Positions 1-27,765 of a DNA stretch of 54,392 bases are shown here, piece after piece (positions within the stretch are counted from its first letter, which is position 1; each line of letters opens with the position of its first letter). The stretch is from Coleofasciculus sp. B1-GNL1-01. GTDB taxonomy: Bacteria > Cyanobacteriota > Cyanobacteriia > Cyanobacteriales > Coleofasciculaceae. The notes under the pieces are model-generated. The model saw nothing but the letters and a program-made list of their open reading frames with translations, did no database searches and was not told the origin of the DNA. Where the stretch lies: NCBI GenBank assembly GCA_040220235.1, contig JAVJTO010000134.1; one strand, 5' to 3'. The translations under genes and the position numbers were made by a program.

Positions 1-126
1 TTGAGCAACCGTCAGCTACTGCACAGACATTGCCACGACCAAAAAACTGCTATGGATGCCTTGAGGCAAAAGAGGCAGTTGGCACATGAAGAGTTAGCGA
101 GGTATTTGGATGATAACCCGTTCTAA
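1..126 (+). CDS. 3' end of group II intron-encoded RT/maturase (C-terminal HNH endonuclease tail), partial
   Basis: Frame 1 reads LSNRQLLHRHCHDQKTAMDALRQKRQLAHEELARYLDDNPF*. The N-x-QLLHRHCHD motif is typical of the En domain of cyanobacterial group II intron proteins and lies just upstream of domain V. It is absent from the ORF track because it runs off the window. Confidence 0.85.
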   Translation: MSNRQLLHRHCHDQKTAMDALRQKRQLAHEELARYLDDNPF

Positions 127-259
127 CCGCCTAACCCTAACTGAGGGAAGAGGTGCCCATGACAAGGGTCAAGTCACTGAGGAGCCGTGTGACGGGAAAC
201 TGTCACGCACGGTTTTGAAAGGGAGACGGGAGGTAGCAATATCTCCCGCCGACCCAAAC
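1..259 (+). mobile_element. Group II intron (IIB-like), 3' part
   Basis: Domain V is GAGCCGTGTGACGGGAAACTGTCACGCACGGTTT (~182-215). The domain VI stem is GGG..CGGGAGGT/ATCTCCCG..CCC with a bulged A at 252, 8 nt before an AC terminus at 259. Confidence 0.9.
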
Positions 260-841
260 TATTGGCAGATTGAACAGTTAGAACAAGCTGGCTACACCGT
301 CCACACCCAAGAGGGATGGCACACCTCAACCCTAAGACAGTACCTTGGCTTGCCCAAGTCCAAGAACAAGGCTGAAGAGTCACCTGCCGCCCATGCTGTT
401 GATGGTATTTGCCTCGCCGCTTCCCAGTTCTTATGGTATCGCCAAATCAAAGGGAGAAGTGGCACCTTCAATGGTGGAATAGCGGTAACACCCTGTCAAT
501 TTGCGGTAATCAGCCGCCCCCCAATTTGCCGCCGCCAACTACACCTAATGATTCCCAGCAAGGGAGGGCGGCGGCGAAACTATGGTGGCACGGTTACTCG
601 CCACAGTGGGTTAAGGAAGGGCGATTATGTCAAGGCTGAAAAAGCAGGCATCACCTACTACGGTTACGTTTCCGGTGACACCAAAACCAAAGTTTCGGTG
701 AGTGACGCTAACTGGAAACGGTTGGGACAGTTCACTGCCAAAAAAGTCCAATTGTTGCAGCGAAATACCGGACTGGTATCAACAGTTGGATTGTCAAACC
801 TCACCACACTGAGCGAAGTCGAAGTGAGTGGCACGGTTTGA
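260..841 (+). CDS. 3' exon of RRXRR-family IsrB/IscB-like OMEGA nuclease (IS200/IS605 superfamily), interrupted by the intron
   Basis: YWQIEQL..GWHTSTLRQYLGLPKSKNKAEESPAAHAVDGICLA (RuvC-III-like H-x-x-D) and RRQLH..KGG.RRNYGGTVTRH..RKGDYV match cyanobacterial RRXRR proteins. The first 50 codons of the 110..841 ORF are intron RNA. Confidence 0.8.
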   Translation, partial: YWQIEQLEQAGYTVHTQEGWHTSTLRQYLGLPKSKNKAEESPAAHAVDGICLAASQFLWYRQIKGRSGTFNGGIAVTPCQFAVISRPPICRRQLHLMIPSKGGRRRNYGGTVTRHSGLRKGDYVKAEKAGITYYGYVSGDTKTKVSVSDANWKRLGQFTAKKVQLLQRNTGLVSTVGLSNLTTLSEVEVSGTV

Positions 842-842
842 C

Positions 843-896
843 CTCTATCCCTCCCCAACCTGCTTCGCTGAGGTTGGGGTCTCACGAGGTAAAGCG
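843..896 (+). mobile_element. Right end of the IsrB/IscB IS200/IS605-type element (subterminal hairpin)
   Basis: CTATCCCT, then hairpin CCCCAACCT(853-861)/AGGTTGGGG(871-879), followed by ATGA at 897. Confidence 0.65.
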
Positions 897-2435
897 ATGA
901 GCGAAAACCAGTATAAAGCGGTCATTTTAGATCTCGATGGCGTCATTACCCAGACGGCGCGTTTACACGCTAAAGCTTGGAAGCAGATGTTTGATGATTA
1001 TCTGCACCAACGTTCCCAACGCCAAGGAGATGATTACACGCCGTTTGATATTGATGCGGATTACCATGAATACGTGGATGGGAAGCCCCGTTACGATGGG
1101 GTAAAAAGTTTCTTAGCCTCCTGTGGGATTGAATTACCCCAGGGAAATCCTGATGATTCCACTGATCAGGAAACCATCTGTGGGCTGGGGAACCGCAAGA
1201 ATCAGCTTTTTCTGGATGTAATGGAACAGGAAGGCGTGGAAACCTATTCTGATACAGTCGAACAGATTCATCACTGGCGAAAGCAAGGTGTGAAAACGGC
1301 GGTTGTTTCCTCCAGTCGCAACTGTGCAGCGATTTTGGATAAGGCTGGGTTAATGGATCTGTTCGATACGAAGGTGGATGGCGTTGATTCTGCACAACTA
1401 AACCTCAATGGGAAACCCGCACCCGATATCTTTTTACAAGCCGCCCGTGAACTTTCTGTGGAACCGGAAAATGCGATCGCAGTCGAAGATGCGATATCTG
1501 GTGTGAAAGCGGGAAAAGCGGGACAATTTGGGTTAGTTGTCGGTGTGGTGCGCGATGGCGGTGGTGACGCCTTACGCCACCATGGTGCGGATGTTGTGGT
1601 TCGCGATTTACGGGATATCTCGGTAACGCCAGAGAAAACGACTCAATCCCTCCCCTCGGCGCTGGAACAAATTAGCACTATTGAAACTCGGCTGCGCGAT
1701 CGCCAATTGGCATTATTTACCGATTATGATGGGACACTGACGCCGATTGTACAACGCCCGGAAGCCGCCATCCTGTCTCAGGAAATGCGATCGCTACTCC
1801 TACAGTTATCTGATCAAGTGATTGTGGCGGTAATTAGTGGACGGGACTTGGCGGATGTACAAAACATGGTAGGTATCGATAAACTCTACTATGCAGGTAG
1901 CCACGGTTTTGATGTCGCTGGGGGTGGTATCCAGATGCAGCAGCAACAAGCCCAAGCCAGTCTCCCGGAATTAGATGAGGCGGAACACCAGCTACGGGAA
2001 CAGCTTAAACCCATTGCTGGGGCGAAAGTGGAACGGAAACGGTTTGCGATCGCACTTCATTATCGAGAAGTGGCTGAGTCAGATGTGGAACGGATTCAAG
2101 CCATTGTCGATCAGGTGGTTCAAAACCATCCACAGCTACGCCAAAGCCGTGGCAAAAAGATATTTGAACTACAGCCAGACGTAGCCTGGGATAAAGGGCG
2201 TGCTATCTGTTGGTTGCTGGATAAACTTGACATCAACACCCCAGATGTGCTGCCGATGTATTTAGGCGACGATACCACAGACGAAGATGCCTTCCAAGCG
2301 CTGCGCGATCGCGGAATTGGTATTCGTGTGGGTATGCCAGACGAACCAACCCAGGCTAATTATTATCTGCAAAACCCCGACGAGGTGAAGCAGTTTTTCC
2401 AAGCATTATTGAAGACATTAGACGAAAGGAATTAG
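897..2435 (+). CDS. otsB: Fusion of a beta-phosphoglucomutase-like HAD domain and trehalose-6-phosphate phosphatase
   Basis: N-terminal DLDGVIT / VDGKPRYDGV / GKPAPDIF / EDAISGV. C-terminal TDYDGTLTPI, ISGR, YAGSHG, WDKG and LGDDTTDEDAF. Start set at ATG 897 with GAGGT upstream. Confidence 0.85.
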   Translation: MSENQYKAVILDLDGVITQTARLHAKAWKQMFDDYLHQRSQRQGDDYTPFDIDADYHEYVDGKPRYDGVKSFLASCGIELPQGNPDDSTDQETICGLGNRKNQLFLDVMEQEGVETYSDTVEQIHHWRKQGVKTAVVSSSRNCAAILDKAGLMDLFDTKVDGVDSAQLNLNGKPAPDIFLQAARELSVEPENAIAVEDAISGVKAGKAGQFGLVVGVVRDGGGDALRHHGADVVVRDLRDISVTPEKTTQSLPSALEQISTIETRLRDRQLALFTDYDGTLTPIVQRPEAAILSQEMRSLLLQLSDQVIVAVISGRDLADVQNMVGIDKLYYAGSHGFDVAGGGIQMQQQQAQASLPELDEAEHQLREQLKPIAGAKVERKRFAIALHYREVAESDVERIQAIVDQVVQNHPQLRQSRGKKIFELQPDVAWDKGRAICWLLDKLDINTPDVLPMYLGDDTTDEDAFQALRDRGIGIRVGMPDEPTQANYYLQNPDEVKQFFQALLKTLDERN

Positions 2436-2439
2436 CATC

Positions 2440-4851
2440 GTGGCTGAACGGAAAACGCACGATTGGCAACTGATCTACCCCAACTGGGAACCCCAACAAC
2501 AGGGATTACGGGAAGCACTCTGTACATTGGGAAATGGCTACATTGCCACACGCGGCGCTTTCGAGGAGGTGAATGCTGGGGGTTCTCATTATCCCGGTAC
2601 TTACTTAGCAGGCGGGTATAATCGGCTGGAAACCAATATAGCGGGTCGTGTCCTGGAAAGCGAAGATCTGGTTAATTTTCCCAATTGGCTTCCTCTGAAC
2701 TTTCGCCCCAAAGATGGTGACTGGTTTGATATTGATGCGGTTGACGTATTGGATTTTTCCTATCGTTTAGACGTACACTGTGGCGTGCTGGAACGGATGG
2801 TACGTTTCCGTGACGCCAACGAGCGCGAGTTTACTCTCACCAGCCGACGCCTAGTTCATCAAGACAACCCCCATTTAGCCGCGATTGAGTGGCGGCTAAT
2901 TGCCCACAATTGGTCAGGAGAAATCGAGATTCGTTCCGCACTGGATGGGACTGTATCCAATCAAAACGTTGAGCGCTACCGACAGCTTAATAGTAAACAC
3001 TTAGACATCCTGGATACAGGTTATGAGGGCGAAGACGCTATTTTTCTGAGTGTTTGCACCAATCAATCTCATATCAGCATGACTCAAGCGGCGCGAACCC
3101 AAGTCTTCGAGGGTGATGTGGTGGTGCCAACGCAGCGAGAACGTCGGGATGAGAATGGACGGATTGCCCAGCACTTAGTTGTACCCTGTCAGCAACAGAA
3201 GGAACTGCGGGTTGAGAAGATTGTCGCGATTTATACATCAAGAGACTTTGCCATCAGTGAACCTGGACTAGAAGCTAGGAAGACTGTGCGCCGAGCGTCA
3301 GGCTTTGCGGATTTATTGCGATCGCACCAACGGAAATGGCGTCATCTCTGGAGTATTGCTGATATTAACCTGGAAAACGGTGATATCGACACCCAGTTTA
3401 TTTTGCGGTTACATATCTTCCATCTGCTGCAATCCACTTCACCGAATACCATTGATCGGGATGTGGGCGTACCGTCGCGAGGATGGCATGGAGAAGCCTA
3501 TCGCGGACACATTCTCTGGGATGAGTTATTCATTTTTCCCTTCCTGAATCTGCGCCTACCCGAATTGACCCGTTCTCTGCTAATGTACCGTTACCGCCGC
3601 CTCACCGAAGCGCGGCATTTGGCTTGTACAGCCGGATACCAGGGCGCAATGTTTCCCTGGCAAAGTGGCAGTGATGGACGCGAGGAAAGCCAGGAATTGC
3701 ACTTGAATCCTCGTTCTGGACGTTGGATTCCAGATAACTCCAATTTTCAGCGACACGTCAATGCGGCAATTGCCTATAACGTTTGGCGGTACTACCAAGC
3801 GACGAATGATATCGAGTTTCTCTCCTACTACGGTGCAGAACTATTGCTGGAACTCGCCCGATTTTGGGCAAGTATTACGGTATATAATGCAGAGCGCGAT
3901 CGCTATGAGATCCGTAACGTTATGGGTCCGGATGAATTCCACACCCATTATCCCGATACGGAGACGCCGGGATTAAATAATAACGCTTACACCAACGTGA
4001 TGGCAGCATGGGTATTACGTTGTGCCAGTGGCGTGTTACAGTTACTCGACGAAAAGCGCCGCGAAGAATTGACCGAGGTTCTGGATATCGAGGACGAAGA
4101 ACTGGTTCGCTGGGAGGAAATCAGTCGCAAAATGTTTGTTCCGTTCCACGATAAGGGAATAATTAGCCAGTTTGAGGGGTATGAGAATCTCAAGGAGTTT
4201 GACTGGGAAGGTTATCGAGAAAAATACGGCGATATCCAGCGCCTTGATCGCATCTTAGAGGCGGAAGATGAGGATGCGAACGGTTACAAAGCCAGCAAGC
4301 AGGCGGATGTACTGATGCTGTTCTATCTGTTCTCATCAGAGACGTTGCAGGATCTATTTGAATATATGGGCTACCCCTTCGATGCGGAAACCATCCCCCG
4401 CAATATCAACTATTACATGCAGCGCACCTCTCATGGTTCCACCCTCAGCCGGATGGTGCATTCCTGGGTATTATCCCGATCAGATCGAGAAAAAGCGTGG
4501 AAATTCTTTAAAGAGGCTCTCCATAGCGACATTGATGACATTCAGGGAGGTACAACGCCTGAAGGCATCCACTTAGGGGCGATGGCGGGAACGGTGGATC
4601 TGATGCAACGCTGTTATACCGGGTTGGACATTCGCGATCAGGTCTTGTGGTTAAATCCGTGTCTGCCTAGTGAATTATCCGATATACGCCTGCGATTGCG
4701 CTACCGAGGACATTGGCTATCACTGCGGTTGACTGATGAAAATCTCACCGTTTCCTTTGATCGCGGCTGGTCACAACCGGCTTGCATTGGCTTCCAAGGT
4801 GAGGTCTATGAGATGGTTGAGGGAGAGACAAGGGAGTTTAAATTGGCTTGA
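2440..4851 (+). CDS. Glycoside hydrolase family 65 (trehalose / trehalose-6-phosphate phosphorylase-like)
   Basis: REALCTLGNGY, GWHGEAYRGHILWDE, VMGPDEFH, KQADVLML, HGSTLS and GIHLGAMAG motifs. Starts 4 bp after the upstream gene. Confidence 0.9.
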   Translation: MAERKTHDWQLIYPNWEPQQQGLREALCTLGNGYIATRGAFEEVNAGGSHYPGTYLAGGYNRLETNIAGRVLESEDLVNFPNWLPLNFRPKDGDWFDIDAVDVLDFSYRLDVHCGVLERMVRFRDANEREFTLTSRRLVHQDNPHLAAIEWRLIAHNWSGEIEIRSALDGTVSNQNVERYRQLNSKHLDILDTGYEGEDAIFLSVCTNQSHISMTQAARTQVFEGDVVVPTQRERRDENGRIAQHLVVPCQQQKELRVEKIVAIYTSRDFAISEPGLEARKTVRRASGFADLLRSHQRKWRHLWSIADINLENGDIDTQFILRLHIFHLLQSTSPNTIDRDVGVPSRGWHGEAYRGHILWDELFIFPFLNLRLPELTRSLLMYRYRRLTEARHLACTAGYQGAMFPWQSGSDGREESQELHLNPRSGRWIPDNSNFQRHVNAAIAYNVWRYYQATNDIEFLSYYGAELLLELARFWASITVYNAERDRYEIRNVMGPDEFHTHYPDTETPGLNNNAYTNVMAAWVLRCASGVLQLLDEKRREELTEVLDIEDEELVRWEEISRKMFVPFHDKGIISQFEGYENLKEFDWEGYREKYGDIQRLDRILEAEDEDANGYKASKQADVLMLFYLFSSETLQDLFEYMGYPFDAETIPRNINYYMQRTSHGSTLSRMVHSWVLSRSDREKAWKFFKEALHSDIDDIQGGTTPEGIHLGAMAGTVDLMQRCYTGLDIRDQVLWLNPCLPSELSDIRLRLRYRGHWLSLRLTDENLTVSFDRGWSQPACIGFQGEVYEMVEGETREFKLA

Positions 4852-8709: not shown

Positions 8710-10626
8710 ATGATTATGTCAACTCTATTCTGGAAAACGGTAAAGGCAAGTCCCGTCCTGTTGGTTGCCTCTTTATTCGTCGCTAGTGGTGCATCGGCGG
8801 CTGAGTCAAATTCCCATCAGACGGCTGCTGATCTGTCTACAGCCGCGATAAATTTGGACGCTGAACCGACAGCCTCAATCAGTCCCACGTTGGATGATGC
8901 AGCACTGACTGAAGCCATCCCAGCAACGGATACGCCCAAACCCACCGTAACCGTTAGTCCCACGTTCCAACTGGCAGATAGTACCTTCCCTGAACCTGTT
9001 CCGGCGGCTGGAGATAGCTCGGTTAACTCTAATCAGGAAATTTTGCAGCAAATCCAGCGCTATGGCAACGAAGGATCTGCCTCTCTTGACCAAGTAACCA
9101 GCGTGGGTCAGTTGCGAGACGTTTCTCCGGGTGACTGGGCGTATGAAGCGCTGCGTAGTTTAGTTGAGCGCTACGGTTGTATTGCCGGGTATCCAGATGG
9201 TACCTATCGGGGCAATCGCGCCTTGACCCGTTACGAATTTGCGGCTGGTTTGAATGCCTGTTTACAGCAAATTGAACGTTTAATTGGGGATGGCGGAGAA
9301 ATTCCTGATTTAGAAACCCTGCGCCGATTAATTCAGGAGTTTGAAGCAGAATTGGCAACCCTGGGTGCGCGGGTGGATAACCTGGAAGGGCGCGTAGCGT
9401 TCTTGGAAGACAATCAGTTCTCAACAACGACTAAGTTGAGAGGGGAAGTCATCTTTGGTCTGGCTGATACTTTCGGCGATACGATTGCTACTGGGGATGA
9501 TGACACGAATACAGTCTTGGGTGATCGGGTACGTCTGAACTTTGAAACCAGCTTTACGGGACGCGATCGCTTGCGTACTCGTTTGGAAGCCATAAACATG
9601 GCTGAATTTGATAGTGGTGTTACTGGCACTAACATGACCCGCTTGGGGTTTGATGGAGCCGACGGTAACGACGTTGCCGTTGATGAACTTTGGTATCGCT
9701 TCCCCTTCGGTGACAACCTCCTTGTCCAAATTGATGCGGCTAACGGTGAGTTTCAGGACACCATTATCGATGTAGTTAACCCTTTCTTTGACAGTAGTGG
9801 TAGTGGTTCTATTTCCCGCTTTGGTCGCTTCAATCCGATTTATCGGACAGGAGGCGGTGCTGGTGGAACCTTAACTTATAGCTTGGGAGATGCCTTAGAG
9901 TTGTCAGCGAGTTACTTTGCTGACGAAGGATCAGATCCAGGTGAGGACAGGGGACTCTTTAACGGCAATTTCGCTGCCTTGGGTCAGATAACGTTCAAGC
10001 CGACTGAAAATATTAGCATAGCTGGAACTTATGTGCGTTCCTACTACCGGGGAGAAGACTTAAACGATGCAGACGGGAATGTGAATGTTACTGGGTCTAC
10101 AGGTAGCCTTTTAGCACGCCGACCTTTTACCAATAATGTAGCAACTTCAGCCGATTCTTTCGGGTTGCAAGCGAATGCAACATTTGGTAAGTTTTCTGTT
10201 GGCGGTTGGGTCGGTTATCAAGATGTTCAAGCTGAAGATGATTTCGGCTTCAATCCATTGTTCCCAATGTTGGGTTCCGAATCCCTTGTGAAAGAAGGTG
10301 ATGATGCTGAAATCTGGAATTGGGCGGTTAACTTAGCATTGCTCGATTTGGGTGGTGAAGGCAATAAGCTAGGTGTCGTGTTCGGTCAGCCACCTAAAGT
10401 TACCGATAATGATGCAGAGAATTTGGTTGTCGATGCTGATGGTAACCAAATCTTATCTGGGCGCGACGATGATGATACCTCCTACCATTTAGAGGTGTTC
10501 TACCGCTATCAACTGACCGACAATATCGCGATTACTCCTGGCGCTTTTGTCATCTTTAACCCAGAACACGAGGATGACAATGATGACATCTGGGTAGGAA
10601 CTATCCGCACTGTCTTCAGTTTCTAA
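8710..10626 (+). CDS. SLH-domain OprB/SomA-type outer-membrane porin (paralog 1)
   Basis: Signal peptide, DVSPGDWAYEALRSLVERYGCIAGYPDG SLH motif, FSTTTKL and C-terminal RTVFSF. Start is 8710 or 8716. Confidence 0.92.
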   Translation: MIMSTLFWKTVKASPVLLVASLFVASGASAAESNSHQTAADLSTAAINLDAEPTASISPTLDDAALTEAIPATDTPKPTVTVSPTFQLADSTFPEPVPAAGDSSVNSNQEILQQIQRYGNEGSASLDQVTSVGQLRDVSPGDWAYEALRSLVERYGCIAGYPDGTYRGNRALTRYEFAAGLNACLQQIERLIGDGGEIPDLETLRRLIQEFEAELATLGARVDNLEGRVAFLEDNQFSTTTKLRGEVIFGLADTFGDTIATGDDDTNTVLGDRVRLNFETSFTGRDRLRTRLEAINMAEFDSGVTGTNMTRLGFDGADGNDVAVDELWYRFPFGDNLLVQIDAANGEFQDTIIDVVNPFFDSSGSGSISRFGRFNPIYRTGGGAGGTLTYSLGDALELSASYFADEGSDPGEDRGLFNGNFAALGQITFKPTENISIAGTYVRSYYRGEDLNDADGNVNVTGSTGSLLARRPFTNNVATSADSFGLQANATFGKFSVGGWVGYQDVQAEDDFGFNPLFPMLGSESLVKEGDDAEIWNWAVNLALLDLGGEGNKLGVVFGQPPKVTDNDAENLVVDADGNQILSGRDDDDTSYHLEVFYRYQLTDNIAITPGAFVIFNPEHEDDNDDIWVGTIRTVFSF

Positions 10627-27045: not shown

Positions 27046-27765
27046 TTACCCACCCTTCTTTTTCGGTGACGCTGAGGATGAACGAGACCCAGATCCGCCA
27101 ATCCCGTCTTTATCTTGCGGTTGTCCGGGTGGTACATCCTGGTAAAGTTGCTGACGCCCATTGCGAATTACCCTCAGCATGTCAGTAAGCTGTTGCTCGA
27201 TACTATTGAGTACAGAATCAGCATAATCATCCGCACCGTTTTGAATGTCTTCGCATTCTTCGAGTGCGAGTTGGCGCAGTTGTGCCAATTCCTGCTGGGC
27301 TTGTCGGCGCATCTGTTCAATGTCAGTCCGGGTTTGTTCTTGCAGCGTTTCACACTCTTGCTGAACCCGTTGCCGGATTTGCTTGGCTTCCAGTTCTGCT
27401 TGTTGCACAATCCCCATGTCATCCAGAATCTGTTGAGCTTGTCGTTCAGCGGCTTCTAGGATTTCTTGGGCATAGTCTTCCGCTTGTAGGAGAATATCTT
27501 CCCCTTGCTGAACAATCTTTTGAGATTTTTCAAATGCCTCTGGTAGACTCGCCCGCACTACATCCAATTGGGTTAAGAACGCTTCTTCATCAATCAAAGT
27601 GTACTTGGTTAAAGGGATGTGTGGGCTATCAAACAGCATCTCCTCTAGCTTAGTCAGTTCTCGCTGAATATCTACATCGGGGGTTCCAGAGGAAAGGGGT
27701 TTCTCTGGGGGGTTGGGTTCTGAGAGTTGGTTGGGTTCGATGCGGGATGACTCTGGGCGTAACAT
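27046..27765 (-). CDS. DivIVA-like coiled-coil cell-division protein (Cdv3-like)
   Basis: [22 protein letters not shown], a long coiled coil and GADDYAD. Lies downstream of, and overlaps, coaD. Confidence 0.8.

Follow-up and report, generated by a model that had tools for sequence, protein, structure and literature searches.

A group II intron within the gene for a predicted IsrB nickase in a cyanobacterium, and its probable homing among isrB copies

The closest precedents for the locus described here, which lies at the start of a 54,392-nucleotide stretch of DNA from Coleofasciculus sp. B1-GNL1-01 (the window, meaning the whole stretch that was analysed), are group II introns living within insertion sequences. 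Kapitonov et al. (2016, PMC4810608, Fig. S9) presented introns encoding RT, GIIM and HNH domains that home into the TnpB genes of IS605-1_CC and IS605B-1_CC. Like the introns of that figure, the present one is ~2.5 kb long, encodes an RT, a maturase and an HNH domain and is oriented as the host ORF; near-identical copies occupy one site in divergent IS200/605-family elements, and intron-plus and intron-minus copies occur side by side. Unlike them, it has as its host IsrB (IscB1), a protein of the Cas9 line and a forerunner of Cas9. The legend of Fig. S9C in PMC4810608 names 'ISC1-2_CC', whereas the element aligned is the 4399-bp IS605-1_CC, and we read the name as a slip.

RmInt1, which resides in ISRm2011-2 of Sinorhizobium meliloti, retrohomes among the multicopy IS copies and has been proposed to curb its host element (PMC1802570, PMC3035460); its splicing within the IS is given as 0.07% (PMC3035460). 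The present intron likewise appears to spread among the copies of a multicopy mobile element, but it has an En domain, which RmInt1 lacks, its host gene is predicted to encode an RNA-guided nickase, and its target is common to elements only 53-60% alike. An IStron is, as an entire element, a group I intron whose mobility comes from the IS (PMC4227781, PMC10690162). IStrons also combine an intron with an IS605-family element bearing an RNA-guided nuclease, whereas in the window element the ORF of the nuclease is split by an independent retroelement of the group II type. Identity with an IStron was rejected, since the domains that Rfam found in the window are exclusively those of group II and the intron lies inside the ORF. 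The original prediction compared the locus with IStrons only and overlooked the TnpB introns and RmInt1, and because these are closer precedents the novelty is narrower than it implied.

On the host side, ISC1-1_CC and DtIsrB (PMC4810608, PDB 8DMB, PMC9581776) share with the window element and its protein PLMP, RuvC-I, RuvC-II and RuvC-III, a bridge helix, the lack of an HNH and insertion before ATGA without duplication, as well as an upstream HEARO-like omega-RNA, which in the window element is a candidate. ISC1-1_CC, printed intron-free in PMC4810608, also has the ...FSPAMVGQYWQIEQLEQAG... stretch in common with the IsrB family of the window. Unlike these, the window isrB has a coding region split by an intron, and its nicking activity is a prediction. 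Nested parasitism as such is thus known, from TnpB introns and RmInt1; IsrB as the host appears to be new, and a literature search covering few subscription journals turned up no earlier case of an isrB or iscB coding region interrupted by a group II intron. With this case, the IS200/605 nuclease genes parasitised by group II introns come to include the Cas9 line besides TnpB.

The split isrB gene and its element

The window forms the start of contig C134 of the host genome (G000; 8.66 Mb in 172 contigs). Its first 259 nt are the 3' end of a group II intron, followed by the 3' exon of an IsrB gene within an ISC1 element. All features lie on the plus strand. The 3' end of the intron-encoded RT-maturase-HNH (En) ORF occupies positions 1-126 (the last 41 codons, with the stop at 124-126), the remainder of the intron being unassembled in this genome. 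Domain V follows at 182-215, with its AGC triad at 183-185 and a GAAA loop, and domain VI at 221-255, with a bulged branch A252 (-8), domain VI and the 3' end ...AAAC259 together spanning 221-259. The isrB 3' exon (260-841) encodes residues 182-374, comprising RuvC-III with HAVD and the C-terminal TAM-interacting part, in a frame that is open from YW at 260 to the stop at 839-841, as had been claimed. The right end of the element (842-896) holds a subterminal hairpin recognised by sequence inspection, and its predicted limit at 896 agrees with empty sites in two relatives (G004 and G006). The ATGA target tetranucleotide (897-900), which is not duplicated, doubles as the start codon of the gene that follows, a HAD hydrolase/trehalose-phosphatase (897-2435) that belongs to the host and lies outside the element.

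The other half, with the 5' exon, omega-RNA and GUGYG intron start that the original prediction had proposed to look for, was found at the end of contig C14, where a putative omega-RNA (about C14:2304-2526) lies directly 5' of an isrB 5' exon with RRXRR (C14:2527-3069), which is followed by an intron 5' end beginning GTGCG (C14:3070-3207). The element has the order putative omega-RNA, 5' exon, intron, 3' exon and right end, and is placed before ATGA. A second copy was also present. At the end of contig C117 these 259 nt recur with 258 identical, ahead of a paralogous exon, and contigs C14 and C74 both end in an isrB 5' exon (...FSPAMVGQ) and then 138 identical bases from GTGCG, which on C74 begins at 27370; both starts match GUGYG.

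The halves were paired by means of empty sites. Five relatives were searched for the empty site of the window copy, and in both of the two that matched the downstream gene (G004 and G006) the left flank of C14 joins window position 897 directly, so that C14 is the 5' half of the window copy. For C74 and C117 the flanks were contiguous in 5/5 relatives, with the junction letters kept in three. The break of C134 inside the intron is explained by the intron being repeated in the genome. The window element shows the terminal hairpins, the 4-bp target without duplication, the empty sites and the lack of a transposase of its own that mark a non-autonomous IS200/605 element of the ISC1 type, and Y1 transposases are encoded elsewhere in the genome (13 matches). 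The ATGA target also agrees with the NTG TAM of IsrB (PMC9581776).

The insertion sits on the start codon of the HAD/trehalose-phosphatase gene, parting the genes at 897-4851 from their upstream region on C14; the 809-codon ORF that comes next looks, by eye, glycoside phosphorylase-like. The frame of the 3' exon is open back through domains VI and V to position 98 (98-841), with an ATG at 110, so that gene callers predict a false intron-exon fusion protein.

Apart from the intron, which separates codons 181 and 182 (FSPAMVGQ|YW) without disturbing the frame, the gene is intact. An intron-free twin decided both splice sites. The same element occurs at another place in a related genome (G003:C54), where 765/766 nt are identical to the C14 half, and where 5 substitutions in the first 552 nt and a 21-nt indel near the end separate it from the window exon. 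Because its junction reads GGGCAG|TATTGG, both splice sites are fixed in frame, and the exons joined in silico give the same frame as this natural allele. Both sequence checks named with the original prediction, for a matching 5' exon and for an in-frame spliced product, thus came out in its favour. Contig C52 of the Coleofasciculus genome holds the empty site of the G003:C54 insertion.

The gene had been predicted to encode an RRXRR protein of IsrB or IscB type. The RRXRR domain is present in the C14 5' exon (PF14239, 156 bits), but positions 260-838 of the window gave no Pfam match. Across the exons, which contain no stops, the GIDPG, VVEV and HAVD motifs are all present, and D62, E164, H226 and D229 (numbered by the intron-free C29 paralog) are conserved in >90% of a 58-row alignment. 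The C29 paralog has DtIsrB as its best sequence match (E 1e-40), and its predicted fold (pLDDT 91) is best matched by 8DMB (E 3e-32). The isrB paralogs show only RRXRR in Pfam and no HNH, and have a gap of ~100 aa against IscB. IscB was rejected as the host, since the sole HNH belongs to the intron ORF, in a different frame that is stopped at 124-126. The host protein is IsrB, with predicted nicking activity; the name was reportedly given in a 2021 Science paper.

Upstream of the C14 exon the HEARO model matched over its full length, with a score of 40.9 bits (E 3.5e-7) that falls short of the cut-off of 83, and the fold of this candidate omega-RNA had a z-score of -3.3. A partial duplicate of the omega-RNA and the first isrB codons lies just upstream of the intact C29 copy (C29:13543-13269, L001). 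The contigs of one DNA run and three metatranscriptome runs were compared with the intron-free allele; intron-free alleles give the same junction as splicing. The RNA runs probably include DNA, because they hold contigs of up to 37-109 kb, and a coverage gap at 4264-4371 carries no meaning.

The intron and its pairing with the exons

The HNH tail, domains V and VI, branch A252 and the splice site after C259 had all been predicted, and every predicted coordinate held. RF00029 matched positions 180-259 with 58.9 bits (E 4e-9; cut-off 40), the fold z-score was -4.0, A252 was read from sequence and alignment as unpaired at -8 in domain VI, and the terminal AC259 agrees with an AY 3' end. From the branch A at -8, which we take to be a class IIB feature, we infer that the intron belongs to class IIB. 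The product of positions 1-123 gave a weak partial HNH match (E 0.009), and over 38 aa it does not differ from the C-terminal end of a complete RT-maturase-HNH protein of 596 aa. This protein, encoded by complete intron copies of 2522 nt, has YADD and an intact RT and HNH. The complete relatives L024 and L111 carry RVT_N, RVT_1, GIIM and HNH, and L111 passes TIGR04416. Five metagenome copies are mutually identical, and the copy at G004:C194 differs from them at 61 positions; in L033 the RT is split into two frames.

Pairing with the exon was found for both expected sequences. EBS1 (UUGUCC or UUGACC) lies in a domain I hairpin loop, TTTTG[A/T]CC, and pairs with the last six exon bases, and EBS2 (ACCAUU or ACCAUG; ACCAT[G/T] in the DNA), upstream of the EBS1 loop, pairs with exon bases -13 to -8. 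The complementary exon sequences, GGNCAR and NATGGT respectively, are the conserved Gly-Gln and Met-Val codons of IsrB, with the wobble base of the Val codon between both pairings. The C14 exon pairs with EBS1 at 6/6 and with EBS2 at 6/6 positions, G-U allowed, the EBS sequences being those of copies L111-L115, which are 258/259 identical to the window at the 3' end, as the EBS region and RT of the window copy itself are unassembled. The EBS1 loop varies with the exon in L116, L034 and L117 (L116 has the exon GCTCAA and the EBS1 TTGCGT), and sister introns hosted by TnpB have different EBS1 loops that fit their own exons at 5/6 positions. Of the further features of the class IIB or CL lineage, EBS3 was not located in the intron; T, A or C stands at the first position of the 3' exon.

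Probable homing among isrB copies and the alternatives

It is very probable that an En-bearing mobile group II intron of ~2.52 kb homes to a conserved segment of isrB genes in cyanobacteria, and the homing among copies that had been foreseen is supported on several counts. The two intron copies, at independent loci of the Coleofasciculus genome, are identical at 396/397 positions of their ends (138/138 and 258/259), a near-identity that may partly be an assembly effect as these are contig ends, whereas the exons around them agree at only 431/543 and 454/564 positions (79-80%); near-identical introns in exons ~80% identical within one genome indicate homing. The occupied site reads FSPxMVG[Q/L]| and was found occupied in IsrBs down to 53% identity, among 21 intron-bearing 5' halves. 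At least 12 short IsrB-like proteins, among the 120 listed out of 495, end in SPxMVG[Q/L]VR[F/L]VG, which is intron read-through; two of these 12 duplicate loci already counted. An intron 93% identical was found at an ectopic position outside any IsrB (L032), in a near-cognate site pairing at 5/6 and 5/6 positions.

Intron-plus and intron-minus alleles, of which a survey had been proposed, are both present. In the Coleofasciculus genome 2/15 isrB sites found were occupied and 13/15 empty, and G003:C54 is intron-free. The C164 site is also intron-free despite pairing at 6/6 and 6/6 positions, and with 13/15 sites free it follows that pairing alone does not set occupancy. The exact junction pattern occurred in 3/52 genomes of the family, twice in each, and matches with one mismatch were other targets. 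Across the phylum 5/401 genomes matched the junction pattern, but the four besides the Coleofasciculus genome had no IsrB near the match, leaving no true site in 400 other genomes of the phylum; the distribution of the intron is therefore patchy.

By the established group II pathway, the transcript of the element would release the intron lariat, and the intron RNP would then reverse-splice into intron-free isrB copies, where the HNH would cut the second strand and the RT would copy the RNA in. The intron would also travel with the element each time a Y1 transposase mobilises the latter in trans. An occupied copy would yield the nickase after splicing only, and probably seldom. Unspliced RNA of the window copy would encode 186 aa without RuvC-III, so that the nickase is to be expected from this copy only after splicing, and since RmInt1 splices from its IS at 0.07%, near-silencing of an occupied isrB copy would be the likelier outcome. 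The candidate omega-RNA lies upstream of the intron and is uninterrupted. The intron is probably a parasite of a parasite, with targets that are neutral, multicopy and mobile, and probably dampens the nickase of its host element. Whether an RNA-guided nickase can be silenced by an intron could be studied here in a natural setting. The case shows an intron lineage aimed at a protein motif common to IsrBs only 53-60% alike, with a mobile-element family as its habitat.

A connection to the origin of IscB has to be weighed. According to PMC4810608, IscB may have originated when iscB1 took up an HNH, possibly from a group II intron, and an RT-HNH intron inside iscB1/isrB is the arrangement which that scenario needs and which PMC4810608, in the part concerned, shows in TnpB only. 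The window intron would be a present-day case of this route from IsrB to IscB if an RT-HNH intron at the HNH linker were later reduced to its HNH. Its site maps to DtIsrB 181/182, two codons beyond the HNH linker at 161-179 (numbering by a sequence alignment anchored on residues named in PMC9581776), and a local profile alignment pairs FSPAM of IsrB with ISGVE of IscB, just before the HNH. A global profile alignment, against this, places the IscB-specific insertion upstream of the site, between residues 169 and 175 of IsrB, and the site falls within a single predicted helix (176-190).

The intron HNH does match the NCBIfam models of IscB (E 1e-7) and Cas9d (E 3e-6). However, on a cyanobacterial IscB-HNH profile it reached 10-14 bits, while eight stand-alone HNH proteins encoded in the same genome, themselves picked as the best scorers on that profile, reached 25-43, and on NF040563 it reached 29-31 against 34-65 bits for the same eight. 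Special kinship of the intron HNH to that of IscB was thus unsupported in two profile comparisons, and an HNH motif search matched 0/146 IsrB-like representatives. F174, S175 and G180 are >90% conserved, and as few stretches of IsrB are so well conserved as this motif, the choice of insertion site is explained; other introns use other OMEGA sites. We consider the route improbable as an account of the window intron. The broader proposition, that HNH group II introns recurrently invade IsrB/IscB loci and that the window intron is a living counterpart of the HNH capture by IsrB which founded IscB and Cas9, seems to us doubtful to the same high degree; if true, it would allow a direct test of whether losing the intron RNA and RT parts leaves a working HNH inside IsrB.

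Returning to homing, its contrary would be a single old insertion into an ancestral IsrB element, copied since then solely by composite transposition. Composite elements are able to transpose, such an alternative was raised for the near-identical TnpB copies of Fig. S9 (PMC4810608), and collapsed repeats could homogenise assembled intron ends. The exons of the two copies nevertheless differ by ~20% throughout, including beside the intron, while the intron ends differ at 1/397 positions; an element 99% identical exists without the intron, and hosts range down to 53% amino-acid identity. We regard transposition alone as very unlikely. Co-conversion of exon flanks proved uninformative, since identity of the two copies was barely higher next to the intron (52/60 and 57/60) than elsewhere (40-53/60). 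At three loci (L031, i.e. the G004:C194 locus, L114 and L115) the 5' exon of one IsrB subfamily is joined to the 3' exon of another; the left flank of G004:C194 and the right flank of G004:C198 map to one gene on C120 of the Coleofasciculus genome, ~930 bp apart, and mis-assembly over the repeated intron is the probable cause rather than recombination.

Domestication of the intron as a splicing-dependent IsrB switch, of use to the element or the host, would suit an insertion that is in frame, with exons that keep three RuvC motifs and no stops, but it is just as unlikely as transposition alone, as any precise splicer is expected to insert in frame, 13/15 isrB sites lack the intron, the distribution is patchy with an ectopic copy in L032, the closest relatives are in TnpB genes, and RmInt1 splices so rarely in its IS (PMC3035460).

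Related introns in OMEGA and TnpB loci

The closest relatives found for the RT (74-77%) are located in TnpB genes, and the tree groups them with the window intron in a single clade (support 1.0). The tree was built with FastTree and midpoint-rooted from 80 of 162 sequences (those with labelled hosts, the RTs of the Coleofasciculus genome, or >=61% identity), with no classified reference RTs, and it gives sister groups rather than the direction of host change. Its 'IsrB' labels on L045, L084 and L104 actually belong to IscB loci.

Among 159 RT-relative loci, four further loci carried introns at iscB genes. Those at L045:2120-4610 and L035:2403-4894 are group II introns in iscB coding regions, at the same site past the N-terminal PLMP region (AVFRRF|PFTIIL); L045 retains an intact HNH in the 3' exon and is preceded by a HEARO match of 151 bits, whereas the 3' exon of L035 is broken. 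At L084:2371-4793 a group II intron splits the HEARO omega-RNA of an iscB gene, and at L104:2423-4792 one lies directly 5' of the 3' three quarters of such an RNA. Split isrB and iscB genes fall out of catalogues that discard short proteins, and they also break assemblies, as happened with the window copy; one such catalogue removed proteins of <250 aa (PMC10055086).

Within the Coleofasciculus genome a different complete group II intron (C34:56110-53542, minus strand, in L002) of 2569 nt, with an RT 59% identical, interrupts another isrB just after RuvC-I (GIDPGKCYS|GIG). It starts with CTGCG and ends in AGC, as against GTGCG and AY, a paired change of the first and the next-to-last base. The start of ISC1-2_CC as printed in PMC4810608 is intron-free where C34 carries this intron. 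Protein P0036 is a false intron-exon fusion call, of the kind described above, for the C34 type of intron, and bears traces of both introns.

Judging by eye from exon translations, group II introns at C45:9094-6548 and on C161 (3' end near 9961) are apparently in TnpB genes, and the C161 3' exon starts with NCLPEFKKVW, resembling the site in Fig. S9 of Kapitonov et al. (PMC4810608). Two group II introns lie near each other at C83:12583-17003 (L007). One of them and its relatives in three genomes (L201, L202 and L204) insert after ...LAMMGC, where the DNA resembles the AMVGQ target. The gene so interrupted carries a GAYNCTS motif and is presumably class II ribonucleotide reductase-like.
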